A stretch of 22,908 nt of DNA, taken from the NCBI GenBank assembly GCA_964244895.1, contig CAXTKV010000067.1, forward strand, positions 1 to 22,908, given 5' to 3'. The position numbers and the translations under genes are program-made. Of the stretch, positions 2,248 through 12,541 are shown piece by piece; within the stretch, counting starts at the first letter, position 1, and every line of letters starts with the position of its first letter. Below the pieces are notes generated by a model. It was not told where the DNA came from. It made no database searches and saw nothing but the letters and a program-made list of their open reading frames with translations. Origin of the DNA: an uncultured Deinococcales bacterium (GTDB lineage: Bacteria > Deinococcota > Deinococci > Deinococcales > JAAFIG01).

Positions 2248-4182
2248 ATGCCCGACTGGTCGTATCAGAACTTGTTTCGTCCGGCGCTGTTCCGCCTGCC
2301 ACCAGCGCGGGCGCGCGACCTGACGCTGAACACGGTCGGTCGTCTGGCTGGGGGGCGCGCTGGGCGGGCGTTGATCGAGTTCATGGGGCACATGACGCCG
2401 CCCACCGGGGCGGGTTCGGACGCGTTGGGTGGGTTGCACAGCCGGGTCGTGATCACGGCGGGTCTGAGTCCCGGCTGGTTGGGCCTGAACGCGCTGGGGC
2501 GCTTCGGGGTGGGGGCGCTCGAGGTCGGCCCGGTGACGCTGGGTGGCGCGGATGAAATCAGCGATGTTCGACGCGACACGGAACATCGCGCGCTCGAGTA
2601 CGCGCATCCGGGCTTGAACTGTTCGGTCAAAACCGCGATCAAAAAACTTGAACATCTCGATGCGGGGCAGGCGAAGCTGATCGTGCAGCTCGGCTGGGAC
2701 GCGCTCGAGGCGCAACGCGAAGTGGTCGAATTGCTCGAGGCGCACGCGGCGGCTTTCACGCTGAGGCCACCGTTGAGCGCTTCCGGCAGGCTCGAGGTGG
2801 CGCTGGAGAATTGGCGAGACCATCTAAGCGCGCTGGCGAAGATCACCGCAAAACCGATCCTGGCGCTCGTCCCGCTCACGCTCGAGCCTGAGTTTCTGGA
2901 CGATTTCGGGCGGGCCTCAATGACTGCGGGCGCTGCCGGATTCGCGCTGCTGGACGGTTTACCGACGCCCACGGGATGGCGTCTCGGGCCGGAATCGTTC
3001 GAGGCCGCCGTGCGCACCACGCAGCGTTTGCGCGGTCTGACGGACGGCCTGATTCTGGCCTCCGGTGGCGTCGACCGGCCCGGTCGCGCCATCAGGCTGA
3101 TCGAAGCGGGTGCCGATCTAGTCGGCATTCACGAGGGTCTGGTCTTCAGCGGCCCCGGACTGCCCAAGCGCATCAACGCCGGCATCGCCGCCCGAGAAAC
3201 CGCTCGGTCCCAGACCGCACCCCAAGCCTGGATCGCGCAGGGCTGGGTCTGGTTGCTGGCGCTCGGGCTGGGCATGATCGCGTCCGGCGCAATCGTCGGT
3301 CTGGTCGGGGTGACGCGCGCCACGCTGCCCTACGACGAAGTTTTTTTGAACCTGACGCGCGCGCAATTCGAGGCCATCAACCCGCGATTGCTGGACTTCC
3401 TGCGCCACGACCGCGTCACGCTGGGCGCAACCATGATTTCGGTCGGTTTGATTTACGCGGCGCTGGCGGTCTTCGGCGTGCGGCGCGGCCTGCACTGGGC
3501 CTGGCGCAGCATTTTCCTGTCGGCCACGGTCGGGTTCTCGAGCTTTTTCCTGTTCGTGCTGTACGGGTATTTCGACCTACTGCACGCGGTCATCAGCCTG
3601 GCGATGCTGCCTTTTTTGGTGGTCGGGATTCGCCAGCCGCTCCCGGCGCGGCGCACCGATGCGGCCACCGACCTGGAGAACGACCGCGTCTGGCGGGCCG
3701 GGCTGGTCGGGCAGTTGCTGTTCGTGGCGACCGGGCTGGGATTGATCCTGGCGGGCGCGAGCATCGCCGGGGTCGGTGCAATCCGCGTGTTCGTGCCGCA
3801 AGATCTGGAGTTCATGCGCACCACGCAGGGTGCGCTCGGGCAGGCCAACGCGCACCTGATCGCGTTGATCGCGCACGACCGCAGCGGTTTCGGCGGGGCG
3901 CTCTGGAGCACCGGCATCGCGGTGCTGACGACCGCGCTGTGGGGCTTCGAGCGCGGCGCGCGCTGGTTGTGGTGGACGCTGGCCGCGTCCGGGACGGTCG
4001 GGTTCGCGTTGACGCTCGGCGTGCATTTCGGCGTGGGCTACACCAGCTTCGCGCACCTGTTTCCCTCGTACATCGGCTTGTGGCTGTTCGCGCTCGGGCT
4101 CGCGTTGTCCGGGCCGTACCTGTTCGGACTGCGCGAGATCGATAGATTACCGTCCGGGAAACGTGTCCGGGAAGGCGTCTAG
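2248..4182 (+). CDS. Dihydroorotate-dehydrogenase-like FMN barrel fused to an internally duplicated multi-pass membrane domain (644 aa)
   Basis: N-half resembles class 2 DHODH (FGVGALEVGPVT; ASGGV..AGADLV..GLVFSGPGLPKRIN). C-half has about 8 hydrophobic segments with two HDR-containing repeats. Confidence 0.8.
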   Translation: MPDWSYQNLFRPALFRLPPARARDLTLNTVGRLAGGRAGRALIEFMGHMTPPTGAGSDALGGLHSRVVITAGLSPGWLGLNALGRFGVGALEVGPVTLGGADEISDVRRDTEHRALEYAHPGLNCSVKTAIKKLEHLDAGQAKLIVQLGWDALEAQREVVELLEAHAAAFTLRPPLSASGRLEVALENWRDHLSALAKITAKPILALVPLTLEPEFLDDFGRASMTAGAAGFALLDGLPTPTGWRLGPESFEAAVRTTQRLRGLTDGLILASGGVDRPGRAIRLIEAGADLVGIHEGLVFSGPGLPKRINAGIAARETARSQTAPQAWIAQGWVWLLALGLGMIASGAIVGLVGVTRATLPYDEVFLNLTRAQFEAINPRLLDFLRHDRVTLGATMISVGLIYAALAVFGVRRGLHWAWRSIFLSATVGFSSFFLFVLYGYFDLLHAVISLAMLPFLVVGIRQPLPARRTDAATDLENDRVWRAGLVGQLLFVATGLGLILAGASIAGVGAIRVFVPQDLEFMRTTQGALGQANAHLIALIAHDRSGFGGALWSTGIAVLTTALWGFERGARWLWWTLAASGTVGFALTLGVHFGVGYTSFAHLFPSYIGLWLFALGLALSGPYLFGLREIDRLPSGKRVREGV

Positions 4183-4398: not shown

Positions 4399-5751
4399 CT
4401 ACTTGATGGCGGGAAAATTCAGACGCAACTTGTCCGGGGACACGTTGCACATGTTGAAACTCTGCCAGTCTTTCGTAACCCGTCTCATCTTGCCCATGCC
4501 CATGCCGGAATTGTTCGACCAATCCGAAACCCAGTTCGCGGTCAGGCTGCGCCAGGTGTCCGCACCGGAATCCGTGACGTAACTGGCCTGGTCGCGGTCG
4601 TCGGGTTTGGCGCGATCGTCGACGACCAGGCGGGCTTTAAAGGAAGAGCAGATGCCCTTGACGTTGGTTGGATCAACCGACGCCCGGCCTTTGGCGGGCC
4701 AGAAGTGAAAGTTGTAGTCCTTGTCCGCCCGCACGGAAATCACGCCGTCGGGCTCAATCCGAAGGTCGGCGGGCTTGTTGGCGTCGTTGGCGAAATCGGT
4801 GACGTAGGCTGCACCGCCCACCTTGTCTGGCGCTTGGGCTTCGTACCACACGTTGTTCTTGTCCAGGATCCAGGCGGTTGGATCCTTGATGGCGACGCGC
4901 GTGTTGGTGGCGTGGTTGCTCGCGCCTTCGTAGAGCTGACCCCAGGCAGTCATGGCGTAGAAATCGCTGGGCCAGACTGGATCAAGAAACACCGGAGCTT
5001 CAGTCGCCCACGAGTACCAACTGGGCACCCCCTTGGGGAGGTCTTCGTGCGGTCCGCTGCTGTCGGAGATCATCTGCTCGACCGTGTTCGGGACGGTGTT
5101 GGCCTTCTCGAAAGGCAGTACCAGCTCGAGCTTCCATTTCTGAGCGCACGCGCCCGTCTGGGCTTGCAGCTTCAAAACCGCAAGATTGGTTGAGGTTTCC
5201 GTCCCGGCCAGTTTGCCGCTGCGCTTATTTTTCAGGTACGCCAGCCCAGCGCCCGCGTCTTCGATCAGCCAGCGCTGAGAGTCCTGGTCGCTGGCGGGTT
5301 CCTGAAGCACCTGGGCGTTATCGGCGCTCGAGCCATGTTCGATGTCCAACACCAGCCCGCTGTGTCGCGCCGTCAGGATGAATGCGCCGCTGGCGCTGGA
5401 TTCAATCCGGTACTTCTGGCTGACCGCGTCACCCCACGGCCAGAGGGTCGCGGTCAGGCCGGGGTCCGACCAGCCGTTCGTGATGGAGACCGCCAGCCCC
5501 TTGCACGATTCGGTGATCTTGTACAGGCCGCCGTCGTTCGGCACGAACGGGTTCGGTGGTGGCGCGGGTGGTGGGCTCGCCGGAGGAGGCGGTGGGCTCG
5601 GCGGGGTGGGCGTCGCTGGTGGTGTGGGCGGCGCGGGCGATGTTGGGCTGGGCGTCGGTGGCGGGCTGGAAACGGTTGGTGCTGAATTGCACGCGCTCAA
5701 GCTGAACGCGCACACCAACGCCAGGACGAGTTTGGGTTCGTGCTTGATCAT
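4399..5751 (-). CDS. Predicted lipoprotein: Pro-rich linker, ricin-type beta-trefoil domain and an uncharacterised C-terminal domain (450 aa)
   Basis: Start reassigned to ATG 5751 (GAGG RBS). MIKHEPKLVLALVCAFSLSAC lipobox, about 40-aa Pro/Thr/Ser run, QxW-like repeats (SQKY, SQRW, AQKW), HSGLVLDI motif. Confidence 0.8.
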   Translation of the reverse strand: MIKHEPKLVLALVCAFSLSACNSAPTVSSPPPTPSPTSPAPPTPPATPTPPSPPPPPASPPPAPPPNPFVPNDGGLYKITESCKGLAVSITNGWSDPGLTATLWPWGDAVSQKYRIESSASGAFILTARHSGLVLDIEHGSSADNAQVLQEPASDQDSQRWLIEDAGAGLAYLKNKRSGKLAGTETSTNLAVLKLQAQTGACAQKWKLELVLPFEKANTVPNTVEQMISDSSGPHEDLPKGVPSWYSWATEAPVFLDPVWPSDFYAMTAWGQLYEGASNHATNTRVAIKDPTAWILDKNNVWYEAQAPDKVGGAAYVTDFANDANKPADLRIEPDGVISVRADKDYNFHFWPAKGRASVDPTNVKGICSSFKARLVVDDRAKPDDRDQASYVTDSGADTWRSLTANWVSDWSNNSGMGMGKMRRVTKDWQSFNMCNVSPDKLRLNFPAIK

Positions 5752-5910
5752 GCTGAACCTCGAGCTTCGGTGGTCGGTGCGCTTCCGAATGCGTTCGCGG
5801 AATTCTTGCCCAGATTCCAGAATTCTGCGTGAAGAACTCCACACGAGCTGCGTTTCTCGAGGGTTGATGCTCGAGTCGAGCGCGCGGTGTTCAAAAAATA
5901 CTTGGAACAG

Positions 5911-5968
5911 ATACACCGTCCAGCACGCAAATTTCGAGCTTCAGGGAAATGCGTGCTGGACGGTGTAT
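5911..5968. repeat. Family A repeat, perfect 19-bp inverted repeat
   Basis: ATACACCGTCCAGCACGCA (5911-5929), 20-nt spacer, TGCGTGCTGGACGGTGTAT (5950-5968). Confidence 0.9.
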
Positions 5969-8785: not shown

Positions 8786-9166
8786 CTAAAAATTCCCGAA
8801 CAACTGCCAGCTCAGGTTCAATCGACCGCTGGAACGCTCGAACTGCACGACCATGCGGTAGAACCCGGCGTCCACGACGGGCAAACGCTGGGTTTCCTGG
8901 TAGGTGCGCCCGGCCTCGAGCCTGCGCTGCCAGACGATCACGCCGTTCGGCGCGATCAGGTCAACGACCGTGCGCCCCTGATTGATGGTCGCGTCCAGAC
9001 TGACATCGACCGAAGCGTTGTTGATTCGAATCGAGATCGGGTACGTGTTCGTGCCCTCGGCGTTCCAGTACGACATGGGAATGTCCGGCAGGAAGCCGAA
9101 GCGCACGCCGATGGTCGCGTACAGGATCGCGAACGCCAGCAAAATCACGAGCAAAATGAACCGCAC
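8786..9166 (-). CDS. Hypothetical membrane-anchored or exported beta-rich protein (126 aa)
   Basis: N-terminal hydrophobic helix (MRFILLVILLAFAILYATIG) then beta-strand-rich sequence. TAGAAT lies 6 nt upstream of the GTG start. Confidence 0.75.
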   Translation of the reverse strand: MRFILLVILLAFAILYATIGVRFGFLPDIPMSYWNAEGTNTYPISIRINNASVDVSLDATINQGRTVVDLIAPNGVIVWQRRLEAGRTYQETQRLPVVDAGFYRMVVQFERSSGRLNLSWQLFGNF

Positions 9167-9321
9167 GACACGATTCTAGCCTGCCGAAGACCGCGCGAAC
9201 CCCGCAAATAACCCGCAAAGAGCGATTGGGCGTTGAACGGACGCGATCCTTTCCGAATCGATACCGTCGCTGACGCCTCGCTGGATGATTTCAACCCGAA
9301 GGCTGGAACGATTCTTGAACA

Positions 9322-11250
9322 TCAATTGAGCGCACCGATGCGGCGATCCAGCACCTGCAACCGCAACGGCAACTCGCCGACCTCATCGCGGTAACGCTTT
9401 GTGATGTCCTCGAGCTTCCGGCGAGCCGCGACGTGACCCTCGAGTTCCAGCGTGGCGCTGACCAGGTACTCGGCCAGCACCTCGTTCAAGGGTTCGATCT
9501 CGAGAAGGCGCACGGAAAGCTCAAGGCACTTGCCGAACTCGCCGCGCGCGCTCCAGGTGTCCATCAACCGCAATCCAGCTTTGACCACCGACCATTCCAA
9601 GGCTTCACGCTCCGAGCGGGCCCAATCGCTTTCCGCCTGCGGCAGAAAAGCCCCCGTGTACACCCTGACGGCGCGCTCGAGACCATCTTCCTCGTCGGCA
9701 CTTAGCAGGCTCTTTATTTCGGTCACGTCAACTTTCAGGCGCGGCCCTTCGCAACTGACGCTGTAGCGCTTGGTGGCCCGGTCGTAAACGATCACCATGC
9801 CCGGTACGGCCCGCGCGAGTTCGTGGCGCACCTGGTGCATGTAATTCGCGGAGGCGTCCGGCGCGTCCTCGGGCCACAGGGCGGCCAGCAGTTGATCGCG
9901 CGTCACGTCCGGATTCAAGAGCAAATACGCGATCACTTCCAGGCTGCGGCGCATCACCAGCTTGACGGTTCGCCCGTCCGCCAGCAGCTGCGGCTGACCG
10001 AGCGTCACAACCTGCAAGCTGACCGGGGCGCTGCCCTCGAGGGCGCGCCAGTCCTCGAACAGCACGGCGGCGTAGGCGCTCTTGGGCAATCCGGCCACCC
10101 GATCAAAGCAATTCGCTAAGCCCCGCAACTCGAGCACGATGGCTGTCCCCACGCCGAGCGCGTGGCGCGTATCCGCGACCGCCTCGAGCGCCCGATCTGC
10201 GGCGGGCAGGTTGCCGGAACGCAGGTGCGCCTCAGCCAGGTGCAAGAGCGCCCAGGCGGCCTCGCGGCGCAACCCGAACTGCTCGAAGGCCGTCTGGGCC
10301 TGTTCGAGTGTACCGAAAGCCCGCGCGTCACCTTGCGCGGCCCACATCGTGCCTTCGCGCAACGCCAGGAAAGCGCGTCGGCGGTCGTCCGTCGCCAGCA
10401 TCCGGGCGCGCGCCAGGTGCGCCCGCGCCGCGTCCATTCGCTCCAGCCCGACCTCGATGGCGGCAGACCCCAGTTCTGCGAAGAACTCCGTTTCCGCGTC
10501 CAGGATGGTGCGGGCCTGAACGGAAGCCGCGCCAAACGCCTCGAGCGCTTCCGCCCAGCGTCCCTGAGCGCGCCGCAGCGTCCCCAAATAGTAGGCCACC
10601 ACGGGCTCCGCGTTCGGCGTCTGTTTGAGCAACATTTGCGCTTCCAGCACGGCATTTTCTGCATCGTTGAAGCGCCCGGCGTAGACCAGCGACAAGCTCT
10701 GTTTAATCAATGGGTAAAGCCGTTTGCTGCCCGAAGCGTACTGAAGCGCCAGCTCGAAATAATGGCTCGCCTGACGTTCCAGACTGCGGTGACTGTAGGT
10801 GCTGGCCAGCACGTGCGCGATGCTCGAGCGCAGGGCGGCTCCCGCGTCGGACGCCAGGGCCGCATTCCAGGCGCGTTCGAGCGCATCGGTGGCCTGCCGG
10901 AGCGACCCGCTCAGCAGCAATTGAATGCCCTTCTCGCGTTCCGCCAGGGCGCGATCAAACGGACTGAGTTCATCGAACGGCAGGGCTTGGAGGGTGCTGG
11001 ACGCGAGTTCATCCTGACCCAGATGCCGCAGAACCGTCGAGAGTTCGATCGCGGCGGGACGGCAACCCGCGCCGACGGATTTCATCAACAAATCCTTGGC
11101 GGACAGCAGTTGACCGACGGCGAACAGGCAATACCCAGCCCAGCGGTCGTCTTCCGGAGCGGCGAGCTTGAGTTTGCGGTGAATCTGCAATCCGCGCTCG
11201 TAATTCGATTCCAGGATCGACTCGAGTATGGCGTTGGGTCTGTCCGGCAT
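9322..11250 (-). CDS. TPR-repeat / winged-helix / BTAD (SARP-type) transcriptional regulator (642 aa)
   Basis: Start reassigned to ATG 11250 (GAGGAG RBS). About 400 aa of TPR-like helices (e.g. YYLGTLRRAQGRWAEALEAF), then VVTLGQPQL..EVIAYLLL..RDQLLAALWPE (SARP wHTH) and YTGAFLP..SDWARSERE..LLEIEPLNE (BTAD). Confidence 0.88.
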   Translation of the reverse strand: MPDRPNAILESILESNYERGLQIHRKLKLAAPEDDRWAGYCLFAVGQLLSAKDLLMKSVGAGCRPAAIELSTVLRHLGQDELASSTLQALPFDELSPFDRALAEREKGIQLLLSGSLRQATDALERAWNAALASDAGAALRSSIAHVLASTYSHRSLERQASHYFELALQYASGSKRLYPLIKQSLSLVYAGRFNDAENAVLEAQMLLKQTPNAEPVVAYYLGTLRRAQGRWAEALEAFGAASVQARTILDAETEFFAELGSAAIEVGLERMDAARAHLARARMLATDDRRRAFLALREGTMWAAQGDARAFGTLEQAQTAFEQFGLRREAAWALLHLAEAHLRSGNLPAADRALEAVADTRHALGVGTAIVLELRGLANCFDRVAGLPKSAYAAVLFEDWRALEGSAPVSLQVVTLGQPQLLADGRTVKLVMRRSLEVIAYLLLNPDVTRDQLLAALWPEDAPDASANYMHQVRHELARAVPGMVIVYDRATKRYSVSCEGPRLKVDVTEIKSLLSADEEDGLERAVRVYTGAFLPQAESDWARSEREALEWSVVKAGLRLMDTWSARGEFGKCLELSVRLLEIEPLNEVLAEYLVSATLELEGHVAARRKLEDITKRYRDEVGELPLRLQVLDRRIGALN

Positions 11251-11473
11251 GATCTCCTCGCTGTGCGGGCCGACAGCAGCGCGCTTCTTCTGCTCGCATC
11301 CTACGGGTTGGCGCGGAACGTGTGTAGTCCACGACTGACGTTTGAGATCCCTCGGAATCGAGCGGGTCAGTTCCGGTTTCAAAATCCAGATTTTGTGTTT
11401 CAGTCCTTACAAAACAACTCAGAATCATCATTTCTTTCGCGTTGATCGGCTTAAAAAGCATTCCGAGTCGTGG

Positions 11474-11503
11474 TTGACAGCCTCAAAGAGAACCCACGAT
11501 AAT
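11474..11503 (+). promoter_or_regulatory. Sigma70-type promoter for the small peptide gene
   Basis: TTGACA (11474-11479), 18-nt spacer, GATAAT (11498-11503), in an AT-rich divergent intergenic region. Confidence 0.6.
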
Positions 11504-11567
11504 CCCTACGTAAACCCAAACAATCCCTCGTTTACCCTCCTGGAAACCCAAGAGGAGGGTACGAAAC

Positions 11568-11690
11568 ATGAATAAACGATTCCTAAAGCTGATGCTCGCG
11601 TTCCTTCTGGTCGTGGTTGTCGGGGCGGCTTCCGCAGAACCCGGCTCGAGCCACGGCGGCGGCCTCGGCGCCGCCTGCGTCAAGTGCTGA
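11568..11690 (+). CDS. 40-aa secreted peptide precursor MNKRFLKLMLAFLLVVVVGAASA-EPGSSHGGGLGAACVKC (absent from ORF track)
   Basis: Strong RBS AGAGGAGG 9 nt upstream of ATG 11568, TGA 11688-11690. Basic N-region, hydrophobic core and A-S-A signal peptidase I site. Own promoter upstream and terminator downstream. Confidence 0.82.
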   Translation: MNKRFLKLMLAFLLVVVVGAASAEPGSSHGGGLGAACVKC

Positions 11691-11726
11691 TCCCAAGCTG
11701 AAATCCACGAACACGGTTCGTTCGAC

Positions 11727-11766
11727 CCGCCCGACCGCGCTTCATTCGTCCCGGTCGGGCGGTTTT
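11727..11766 (+). terminator. Intrinsic terminator after the peptide gene (possibly shared with the convergent response regulator)
   Basis: 11-bp perfect stem CCGCCCGACCG (11727-11737) / CGGTCGGGCGG (11752-11762) followed by TTTT. Confidence 0.65.
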
Positions 11767-12448
11767 ATTCCAGGTTGCTCGGGTCGATCCAGGCGCGTTT
11801 GATGGCGTACAGCACGGCTTCCGTGCGCGAGCCCACGCCCAGCTTGGAAAAAATGTTCGCCAGGTGAACCTGGACGGTGCGCGGGCTGATCTCGAGATCG
11901 CGCGCGATTTCCTTGTTGGTGCTGCCTGTGGCCGCGACCCGCAGCACCTCGAGTTCCCTCGGGCTGAGGGTTTCCTCGGTGGCGGTGATGCGGGCGGTCG
12001 GCATGGTCTGGGCGCTGAAGCGCGACAGGACTTTCTTGGCGACGCTCGGGTGCAGCACGCTCTCACCGTCCGCGACCGCCCGGATGGCGCTGACCAGTTC
12101 GTCCTCTCGGGCGTTCTTGAGGATGTACCCGGCGGCTCCGGCTTCCAAGAGCGCGAAAACGTACGCGTCGTCGTCGTAACTGGTCAAGACCAGCACGGCG
12201 GTGGCGGGCAGTTGCGCCTTGATTTTTTGCGTGGCTTCGATGCCGTTCATGCCGGGCATCGAGACATCCATCAAAATCACGTTCGGTCGGTGCTCGAGCG
12301 CCTTGTCGATGCCTTCCTTGCCGTCCGAGGCCTCACCGACCACGCGCAGGTCCGCGTGCGGTTCGAGCATCTCGCGGGTTCCCTTGCGGACGATCGGGTG
12401 GTCATCGACGAGGAGCAGCGTGATCGTGCGCTCGAGGTTGTCTTCCAT
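11765..12448 (-). CDS. NarL/FixJ-family response regulator (REC + LuxR HTH, 227 aa)
   Basis: LLVDDHPIVR, ILMDVSMPGMNG (phospho-Asp), LTSY, GYILK, and LSPRELEVLR..NKEIARDLEISPRTVQVHLANIFSKLGV. TAGACT lies 7 nt before the ATG. Confidence 0.95.
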   Translation of the reverse strand: MEDNLERTITLLLVDDHPIVRKGTREMLEPHADLRVVGEASDGKEGIDKALEHRPNVILMDVSMPGMNGIEATQKIKAQLPATAVLVLTSYDDDAYVFALLEAGAAGYILKNAREDELVSAIRAVADGESVLHPSVAKKVLSRFSAQTMPTARITATEETLSPRELEVLRVAATGSTNKEIARDLEISPRTVQVHLANIFSKLGVGSRTEAVLYAIKRAWIDPSNLE

Positions 12449-12482
12449 GCTGGACAGTCTACTCGAGTTGCGCCAGCCAGCG

Positions 12483-12541
12483 GAACACCGTCCTGGACGC
12501 TGTTTCCTCGAGCATTACTTTTGCGTGTGGGACGGTGTTTT
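12483..12541. repeat. Family A repeat copy between divergent genes
   Basis: GAACACCGTCCTGGACGCTGTT..GCGTGTGGGACGGTGTTT. Confidence 0.8.

Follow-up and report, generated by a model that had tools for sequence, protein, structure and literature searches.

The RRNPP(A) systems (NprR-NprX, PlcR-PapR, Rap-Phr, AimR-AimP and Rgg-SHP), found in Bacillota and their mobile elements, place a cytoplasmic tetratricopeptide repeat (TPR) regulator beside a small Sec-type propeptide. Their receptors carry 5–9 tandem TPR motifs in the C-terminal part, behind an N-terminal helix-turn-helix or Rap module (3-helix bundle). The RRNPPA propeptides can hold several peptides each, and the pheromones are mostly C-terminal (PMC9765709). 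Streptomyces antibiotic regulatory proteins (SARPs), described in a review as exclusive to actinobacteria, fall into small, medium and large classes with the SARP part N-terminal, accompanied in the large class by an NB-ARC switch (PMC10972967). In Streptomyces coelicolor, the SARP regulator AfsR contacts the first 8 bp of each of two 11-bp repeats that begin at −40 and −29 relative to the start site of afsS (PMC10936776). Here we analysed a locus that combines elements of both groups, located in a 22,908-nt stretch of DNA from an uncultured Deinococcales bacterium (contig CAXTKV010000067.1 of assembly GCA_964244895.1; hereafter the window), where the gene for a 642-aa TPR-SARP regulator lies divergent from that for a 40-aa propeptide. 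A first-pass annotation, made from the DNA letters alone, had interpreted these two genes as a candidate peptide-signalling pair, and the analysis largely supported this interpretation, with binding of the peptide predicted. The locus represents a real, widespread and apparently undescribed variant of intracellular peptide signalling.

The regulator gene occupies positions 9322–11250 of the reverse strand. Its N-terminal TPR region (residues ~1–400; 10051–11250), the predicted peptide-binding sensor half, is followed by an OmpR-type winged helix (~409–505) and a BTAD domain (523–626; Pfam PF03704, E 2.8e-6), which together form the SARP output half (residues ~405–642; 9325–10038). The regulator contains no NTPase domain, and the TPR, winged helix and BTAD leave no space for one between them. 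A profile of the C-terminal 238 residues matched EmbR (PDB 2fez, E 3.1e-5) and, over its positions 7–235, the AfsR SARP domain (8hvr, E 1e-4), which established the winged helix; winged helix and BTAD were homologous over their length to those of AfsR (8hvr, 8k60, 8jke) and EmbR. The window regulator itself gave no Pfam match to TPR, so that this part of the originally proposed composition is now carried by the family, in which TPR_2 was matched in 25/40 and TPR_12 in 23/40 members, with BTAD in 30/39. The TPR profile of the family matched generic TPR proteins, NprR (E 6e-10) and the TPR domain of AfsR (E 1e-9). The family TPR matches and the SARP profile matches thus bore out the inverted order proposed at the outset, with the TPR sensor N-terminal and the SARP output C-terminal. 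In RRNPP(A) receptors, by contrast, the TPRs are C-terminal, and clusters of the type seen here are discarded by RRNPP_detector (PMC10075063); the TPR-SARP order without an NTPase also differs from all three described SARP classes.

The named relatives of the regulator were Deinococcales, in agreement with the suspected Deinococcota origin, and 127 of the 364 genomes of this phylum yielded a family member in a profile search that scored only three candidates per genome. With the window protein alone as query, pattern scans had found 3 genome loci and 1 metagenome locus. The nearest ESM Atlas clusters were BTAD/TPR proteins, mostly of Deinococcota, with look-alikes in Chloroflexota and others that serve as leads only. 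The genome from which the window comes (the source genome) encodes four more full-length paralogs (33–41% identity), one of which, on C217, has an internal stop, and one partial copy. Intact regulator-peptide pairs were also found on plasmids of named cultured Deinococcus species. For the comparisons below we used 146 loci, comprising these six copies and 140 relatives whose match includes the N-terminus; the set excludes matches without the N-terminus, a small number of short matches and 27 that were unlisted. The family comprises a long clade (regulators of ~640 aa) and a short clade (~555 aa), and a FastTree tree of it was used descriptively. Two regulators, of 419 aa in L199 and 367 aa at C293:2652-3755 of the source genome, apparently consist of the TPR half only and each retain a divergent peptide; they may act by protein contact, or be truncated. 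Ten more matches in the source genome were to the SARP half only (C41, C116, C73, C18, C16, C118, C111, C239, C269 and C134), three of which lie within open frames 1102, 1190 and 282 aa long, indicating a genome rich in other C-terminal SARP regulators.

The propeptide gene, a 40-codon open reading frame (ORF) at 11568–11690 of the forward strand, stands where it was first noticed, preceded by the ribosome-binding site (RBS) AGAGGAGG at 11551–11558. It comprises a predicted Sec-type signal (11568–11636), of a pattern shared across divergent propeptides of the family, and a predicted mature 17-mer with a CxxC tail (11637–11687). It is followed by a terminator-like hairpin (11726–11762; 11-bp stem, z −2.0), which with its T tail extends to 11770, agrees with the 11-bp terminator reported before and points to a monocistronic peptide transcript in the window. 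The ORF had been taken as unannotated, yet the exact peptide exists, unnamed, in a protein collection and must have been predicted by at least some gene callers. Two RefSeq plasmid records contain the peptide with no gene listed and gapless locus tags, in a gene table known to be incomplete. The 317-bp spacer between the divergent genes is AT-rich only in relative terms (51% GC, compared with 64% in the window). It also holds a putative regulator promoter on the reverse strand (11254–11303), with a −10-like TAGGAT (11303–11298) and the RBS GAGGAG (11259–11254), both read from sequence. In one DNA sequencing run, a contig was colinear across 9200–12500 with 182 differences and zero gaps, the differences listed ending short of the peptide.

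Pairing with a divergent small ORF proved to be a property of the family. In a fixed test, which called for a divergent ORF of 25–100 aa within 600 bp carrying a basic N-region, a hydrophobic stretch and either an RBS or a leaderless start, 112 of 145 regulator loci were positive (one locus being too short), although two of the calls, L168 and L178, looked spurious by eye. Three other positions around the same genes gave 3, 4 and 3 positives out of 121, and long genes of the source genome gave 16/1253, three of the 16 being members of the family. Peptide profiles detected a divergent peptide at 117 of the 146 loci, seven of these peptides being absent from the training set, and only two genuine matches elsewhere in the same loci (L098, downstream of the regulator, and L162, 1.9 kb away). 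Homologues without an adjacent signal-peptide micro-ORF, named at the outset as the finding that would speak against a pair, are therefore the minority. Among the profile-negative loci, inspection by eye revealed five plausible peptides (L064, L095, L102, L129 and L130) and two displaced ones, and the peptides of L156 and L178 appeared broken. Each of the six regulator copies in the source genome has its own, different divergent signal-peptide ORF. As in RRNPP(A) systems, several distinct pairs thus reside in one genome and the adjacent propeptide combines a basic N-region with a hydrophobic core. Two loci (L075 and L125) carry tandem peptide genes with different cores beside one regulator. 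In L138 the usual peptide is replaced, ~250 nt from the regulator start and behind the divergent promoter, by an ORF in which a unit of ~11 residues recurs and which may encode a peptide precursor with several cores.

The peptides themselves share features that set them apart from ordinary secreted proteins. A profile built without source-genome peptides ranked five of the genome's own peptides 1–5 among its 15,841 small ORFs, the window peptide first (E 3.4e-9); all five adjoin regulator paralogs, and the same search found no free-standing copies. In the long clade, the mature part begins after A-x-A, with [DENH]P in 41/65 distinct cores and in 0/107 ordinary secreted-like ORFs of the source genome. 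A generic signal-peptidase preference for DP or EP was rejected on the latter count. Positions +3 to +10 hold 3.5 Gly in family cores as against 0.7 in the secreted-like ORFs, and an independent alignment of 40 propeptides showed an invariant alanine at −1. The first ten mature residues (11637–11666 in the window) are kept, whereas signal and tail drift, with tails from none to ~50 residues and mature lengths of 8–60; the likely active part is thus this core of about ten residues rather than the entire 17-mer predicted before. Identical cores were found in L078 and L091 despite 54% TPR identity, and the four substitutions that distinguish a 40-aa relative from the window peptide all spare the core. 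Homology search with the window peptide returned only one relative, at 90%. The core is repeated in tandem in five propeptides (L095, L102, L181, L182 and L199), comparable to the several peptides of one RRNPPA propeptide, and a CxxC or CxxxC tail is present in 13/71 peptides. The short clade has a highly conserved propeptide ending in an 8–9-residue S-Q-R-type peptide, mostly as one copy per genome of one family. Core and propeptide C-terminus coincide in this clade and in the shortest peptides, and the core otherwise differs from the mostly C-terminal RRNPPA pheromones in lying directly after the cleavage site. The short-clade propeptide (L140-L191, e.g. L140, L160 and L181) is near-invariant, lies 380–550 bp from the ~555-aa regulator and looks like a vertically inherited, family-wide signal; a GGTTGGGAG motif recurs upstream of it, and an HD-domain gene often follows.

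The co-variation of peptide and receptor that had been suggested as a check was examined by partial correlation in 44 non-redundant loci, with the core taken as +3 to +10. Core identity followed TPR identity after removal of C-terminal identity (r 0.54; 0.52 in 898 distant pairs), while the correlation of the core with the C-terminal half after removal of TPR identity was −0.16. This difference persisted in 70% subsamples (0.49–0.91). The h-region of the signal, which is located on the DNA between the core and the TPR gene, showed no co-variation (0.09 and −0.03), which argues against mere linkage. A parallel search for tracking of the C-terminal half by promoter DNA gave 0.36 vs 0.09 for shared 5-mers but 0.21 vs 0.19 for box identity and was dropped as dependent on the measure.

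Upstream of the peptides, the long clade showed a periodic promoter. Across 77 loci, 3-mers recurred at lag 11 (311 vs 134 expected, z 11.1) and at lag 22 (z 7.4). A TANNNT element lay 22–45 nt before the ATG in 50/65 loci compared with 18 in shuffles, and in the 49 loci anchored on it the conserved columns fell at −28 to −21 and −17 to −10 from the −10 element. If that element starts at −12, these columns coincide with the positions contacted by AfsR in the afs repeats, so that the long clade shares with afsS two 11-bp repeats at the same place relative to the −10, as well as the adjacent small target gene. AfsS is a cytoplasmic protein, and the small target here carries a signal peptide. In the window, four imperfect 11-bp direct repeats (putative SARP boxes for the regulator; 11491–11530, with the family-aligned pair at 11505–11512 and 11516–11523) precede the conserved −10 TACCCT (11533–11538), located 35 nt upstream of the peptide ATG, all on the forward strand. 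A matrix built without the source genome placed this site 2nd of 10,226,252 positions and two paralog sites 6th and 53rd. The main peptide promoter is therefore likely this TACCCT, ~60 bp downstream of the −35 of the σ70-like TTGACA-18-GATAAT promoter of the first-pass annotation. The latter is present at 11474–11503 (forward strand) with 11/12 matches (1 seen vs 0.3 expected in shuffles of 3.6 kb) and was set aside as the main promoter, occurring in 1/65 family loci. Its −10 falls within the repeats, and RNA started from this promoter would sequester the RBS in a hairpin (z −2.6), with an opening energy of 15.0 kcal/mol compared with 6.5 kcal/mol for RNA from the downstream start. Judging from this one locus, it may be a weak basal promoter that is replaced by the bound regulator.

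Our best reading is an RRNPP-like feedback loop on a SARP activator that lies outside RRNPP itself, as TPR position, output domain, core position and phylum all differ. The propeptide would be exported by Sec and cleaved after the ASA motif; its variable C-terminal tail would be trimmed, and the Gly-rich core of ~10 residues would return through an Opp/Dpp-type ATP-binding cassette (ABC) system, for which the 22 family-5 solute-binding proteins of the source genome could serve. The core would bind the TPR half of the neighbouring regulator, as suggested by the co-variation and by what TPR domains do in RRNPP receptors. Binding would free the SARP half, which would then turn on the peptide gene from its repeat promoter and establish positive feedback; side-by-side SARP domains would occupy the 11-bp repeats and recruit RNA polymerase, as expected from a geometry identical to that of AfsR at afsS. 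We consider it quite probable that the peptide is the ligand of the receptor, taking all variants of sign and range together; for the complete autoinducing loop our confidence is evenly balanced, and activation, rather than inhibition, by the peptide is the weakest step of the proposal. A broader reading, which we put forward tentatively, is that Deinococcota own a large cell-to-cell peptide-signalling family, which arose independently of RRNPP when an N-terminal TPR peptide sensor was fused to a SARP activator. It would use dozens of orthogonal Gly-rich peptide codes, with as many as six pairs in a genome, autoinduce through SARP boxes and have exported proteins and cyclic di-GMP (c-di-GMP) turnover as outputs.

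Several observations weigh against the autoinducing loop. Quorum sensing or kin communication, as considered in the first-pass annotation, would depend on release from a two-membrane envelope, and the outer membrane of Deinococcota may prevent the peptide from getting to neighbouring cells. The co-variation was computed among kin and linked genes with no correction for phylogeny, so its permutation P values overstate the effect, and the [DENH]P count is partly circular, the cleavage-site rule itself favouring such dipeptides. No profile match was present within 700 bp of the regulator at 29/146 loci, and five intact regulators without a peptide (L092, L123, L131, L159 and L190) keep the SARP-box promoter ahead of exported proteins, indicating that the regulator can do without a peptide gene next to it. 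Generic TPR proteins match as well as NprR does, and specific sequence affinity to RRNPP receptors was not apparent beyond that of TPRs in general. The C217 copy, whose regulator has a stop, also scores poorly by peptide (E 2.3) and by promoter (rank 22,003); the C5 and C293 promoters lie outside the anchored set; and the short clade has no lag-11 repeats within 130 nt of the peptide.

All pairing and co-variation evidence fits equally well the same ligand-receptor pair with the opposite sign, in which the ligand-free regulator is active and drives production of the peptide and of exported proteins transcribed with it, until the returning peptide shuts it off, providing negative feedback or a timer. 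Phr acts in this manner on Rap and AimP on AimR, the SARP domain of AfsR needs no ligand to activate when isolated (PMC10936776), and the peptide-less regulators with a strong promoter ahead of exported proteins would still work, constitutively. These copies could, however, also listen to peptides of paralogs or neighbours, and the upstream promoter of the window, with its poorly translated transcript, resembles a basal seed for autoinduction, though in a single locus; on balance we regard the opposite sign as unlikely, if the foremost competitor. The range of the signal may differ instead. The peptide may bind its receptor by the same molecular steps but cycle only in the producer's periplasm, reporting export capacity, periplasmic proteolysis or leakiness of the outer envelope. 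Such self-sensing would suit the two-membrane envelope of the phylum and targets that are often exported proteins, and among the neighbours scanned no dedicated outer-membrane exporter or importer recurs. The diversity of cores, the many pairs per genome and the tandem cores nevertheless resemble diversifying communication codes, and Gly-rich cores of 8–10 residues are small, which leaves this reading improbable.

Two further explanations deny the peptide a role as ligand. It could be merely an output, a SARP-activated small exported product (AfsS-like, acting at the envelope or as an antimicrobial), with the TPR half sensing something else; AfsR activates the adjacent small gene afsS through the same box geometry, and in orphan loci the promoter of this type stands ahead of other exported genes under the regulator. 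If the peptide were an output alone, its variation should follow function or species, whereas here the core, and not the signal region, specifically tracks the TPR half, each paralog has its own core and no free-standing copies were found in the source genome, making this possibility also rather improbable. Finally, the peptide might be a relic, what remains of the signal peptide after the rest of an exported protein behind the SARP promoter was deleted, as the orphan loci with full-length exported proteins at the peptide position might suggest. The Gly-rich core, the short length and the stop and terminator common to all tree clades and four families speak against it, as do mature starts unlike those of ordinary secreted proteins and a relative whose 4 substitutions all lie outside the core; conservation has largely refuted the relic, and we give it very little credence.

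No description of the regulator-peptide pair was found in the open literature, although supplements and subscription journals could list such peptides. Cell-density signalling has been proposed within the same phylum for Deinococcus DqsI/DqsR and for LuxS, which are small-molecule systems using N-acyl homoserine lactone (AHL) and autoinducer-2 (AI-2), respectively. Their table entry (PMC6300522) involves no peptide or TPR-SARP receptor, and that Deinococcus review has 0 occurrences of 'TPR' or 'SARP'. Such a pair likewise goes without mention in passages of a small-ORF proteomics study (PMC9650054) and of the D. deserti RNA-seq study (PMC4007540), and a 2005 paper listed the D. radiodurans SARP-domain protein DR0724 as of unknown function (PMC1274311). 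Small-molecule signals have been placed in phyla other than Bacillota (PMC10075063), the phylum for which intracellular peptide-pheromone receptors are described. If borne out, a TPR-SARP receptor with a cognate exported peptide in Deinococcota would bring peptide signalling into a phylum with two membranes and provide SARP domains with a peptide ligand that is itself encoded by a gene. It would also mean that the RRNPP design was arrived at a second time by an independent route. The family lends itself directly to experiment with the plasmid pairs of cultured Deinococcus, synthetic ligands of 8–17 residues and a target promoter predicted to the base, and its many pairs with different cores are a potential source of orthogonal inducible switches. 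The five intact regulators without a peptide would be natural orphan receptors.

The genes around the pair vary between family loci. We scanned 70/75 first upstream genes plus 8 cluster examples and 57/69 downstream genes, among which HD-domain and GGDEF/EAL proteins, PAS kinases, S8 and M23 peptidases and transposases recurred. HD-GYP-like or GGDEF/EAL genes were present at 26/91 long-clade and 14/43 short-clade loci against a rough 5% expected from the source genome, kin not being independent in these counts. An S8 protease lies behind the peptide in L068, L083, L094 and L096, and secreted proteases also occur near some RRNPP(A) loci. The SARP-box promoter was found at other loci ahead of exported proteases, lipoproteins or c-di-GMP enzymes; of the 17 peptide-less loci scored, six had a high-scoring box promoter, five of them ahead of signal- or lipoprotein-like ORFs. 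In the window, the peptide is the sole gene between this promoter and the terminator. No distant regulon was found in the source genome, where only 2 places besides the window, neither of them followed further, fitted its three-copy pattern and the other top matches of the family promoter matrix were tied to no gene. Neither the convergent NarL-type response regulator (11765–12448) nor the 126-aa gene downstream of the regulator recurred as a neighbour in the clustering of family loci, and both were excluded from the parts of the system. No phage match was found, in contrast to the mobile elements that carry RRNPP(A) systems, and the window had no Rfam match.

Additional observations concern other genes. 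Five small ORFs of the source genome with an RBS and a signal-peptide pattern scored weakly with the family profile: C310:2639(−), C50:24757(−), C28:26340(−), C134:2854(−) and C33:2869(−). The one on C310 precedes a 476-aa ORF on the same strand, and the one on C50 precedes ORFs of 123 and 572 aa. In the window, the 126-aa gene, which lacks a Pfam match, has a TAGAAT 6 nt ahead of its GTG, a leaderless-type start (9166–9225, reverse strand), and two TTTGCGGG copies, 11 bp apart, lie ~25–45 nt above that TAGAAT, possibly marking another regulated promoter. A 505-aa ORF at 4399–5916 (reverse strand) has a lectin domain of the ricin-B type (PF14200, E 1.5e-25) in addition to a lipoprotein-like stretch and a linker rich in proline; its C-terminal half has no Pfam match. 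A 644-aa fusion at 2248–4182 (forward strand) joins a dihydroorotate-dehydrogenase-like N-terminal part (weak PF01180) to a multi-pass membrane C-terminal part.

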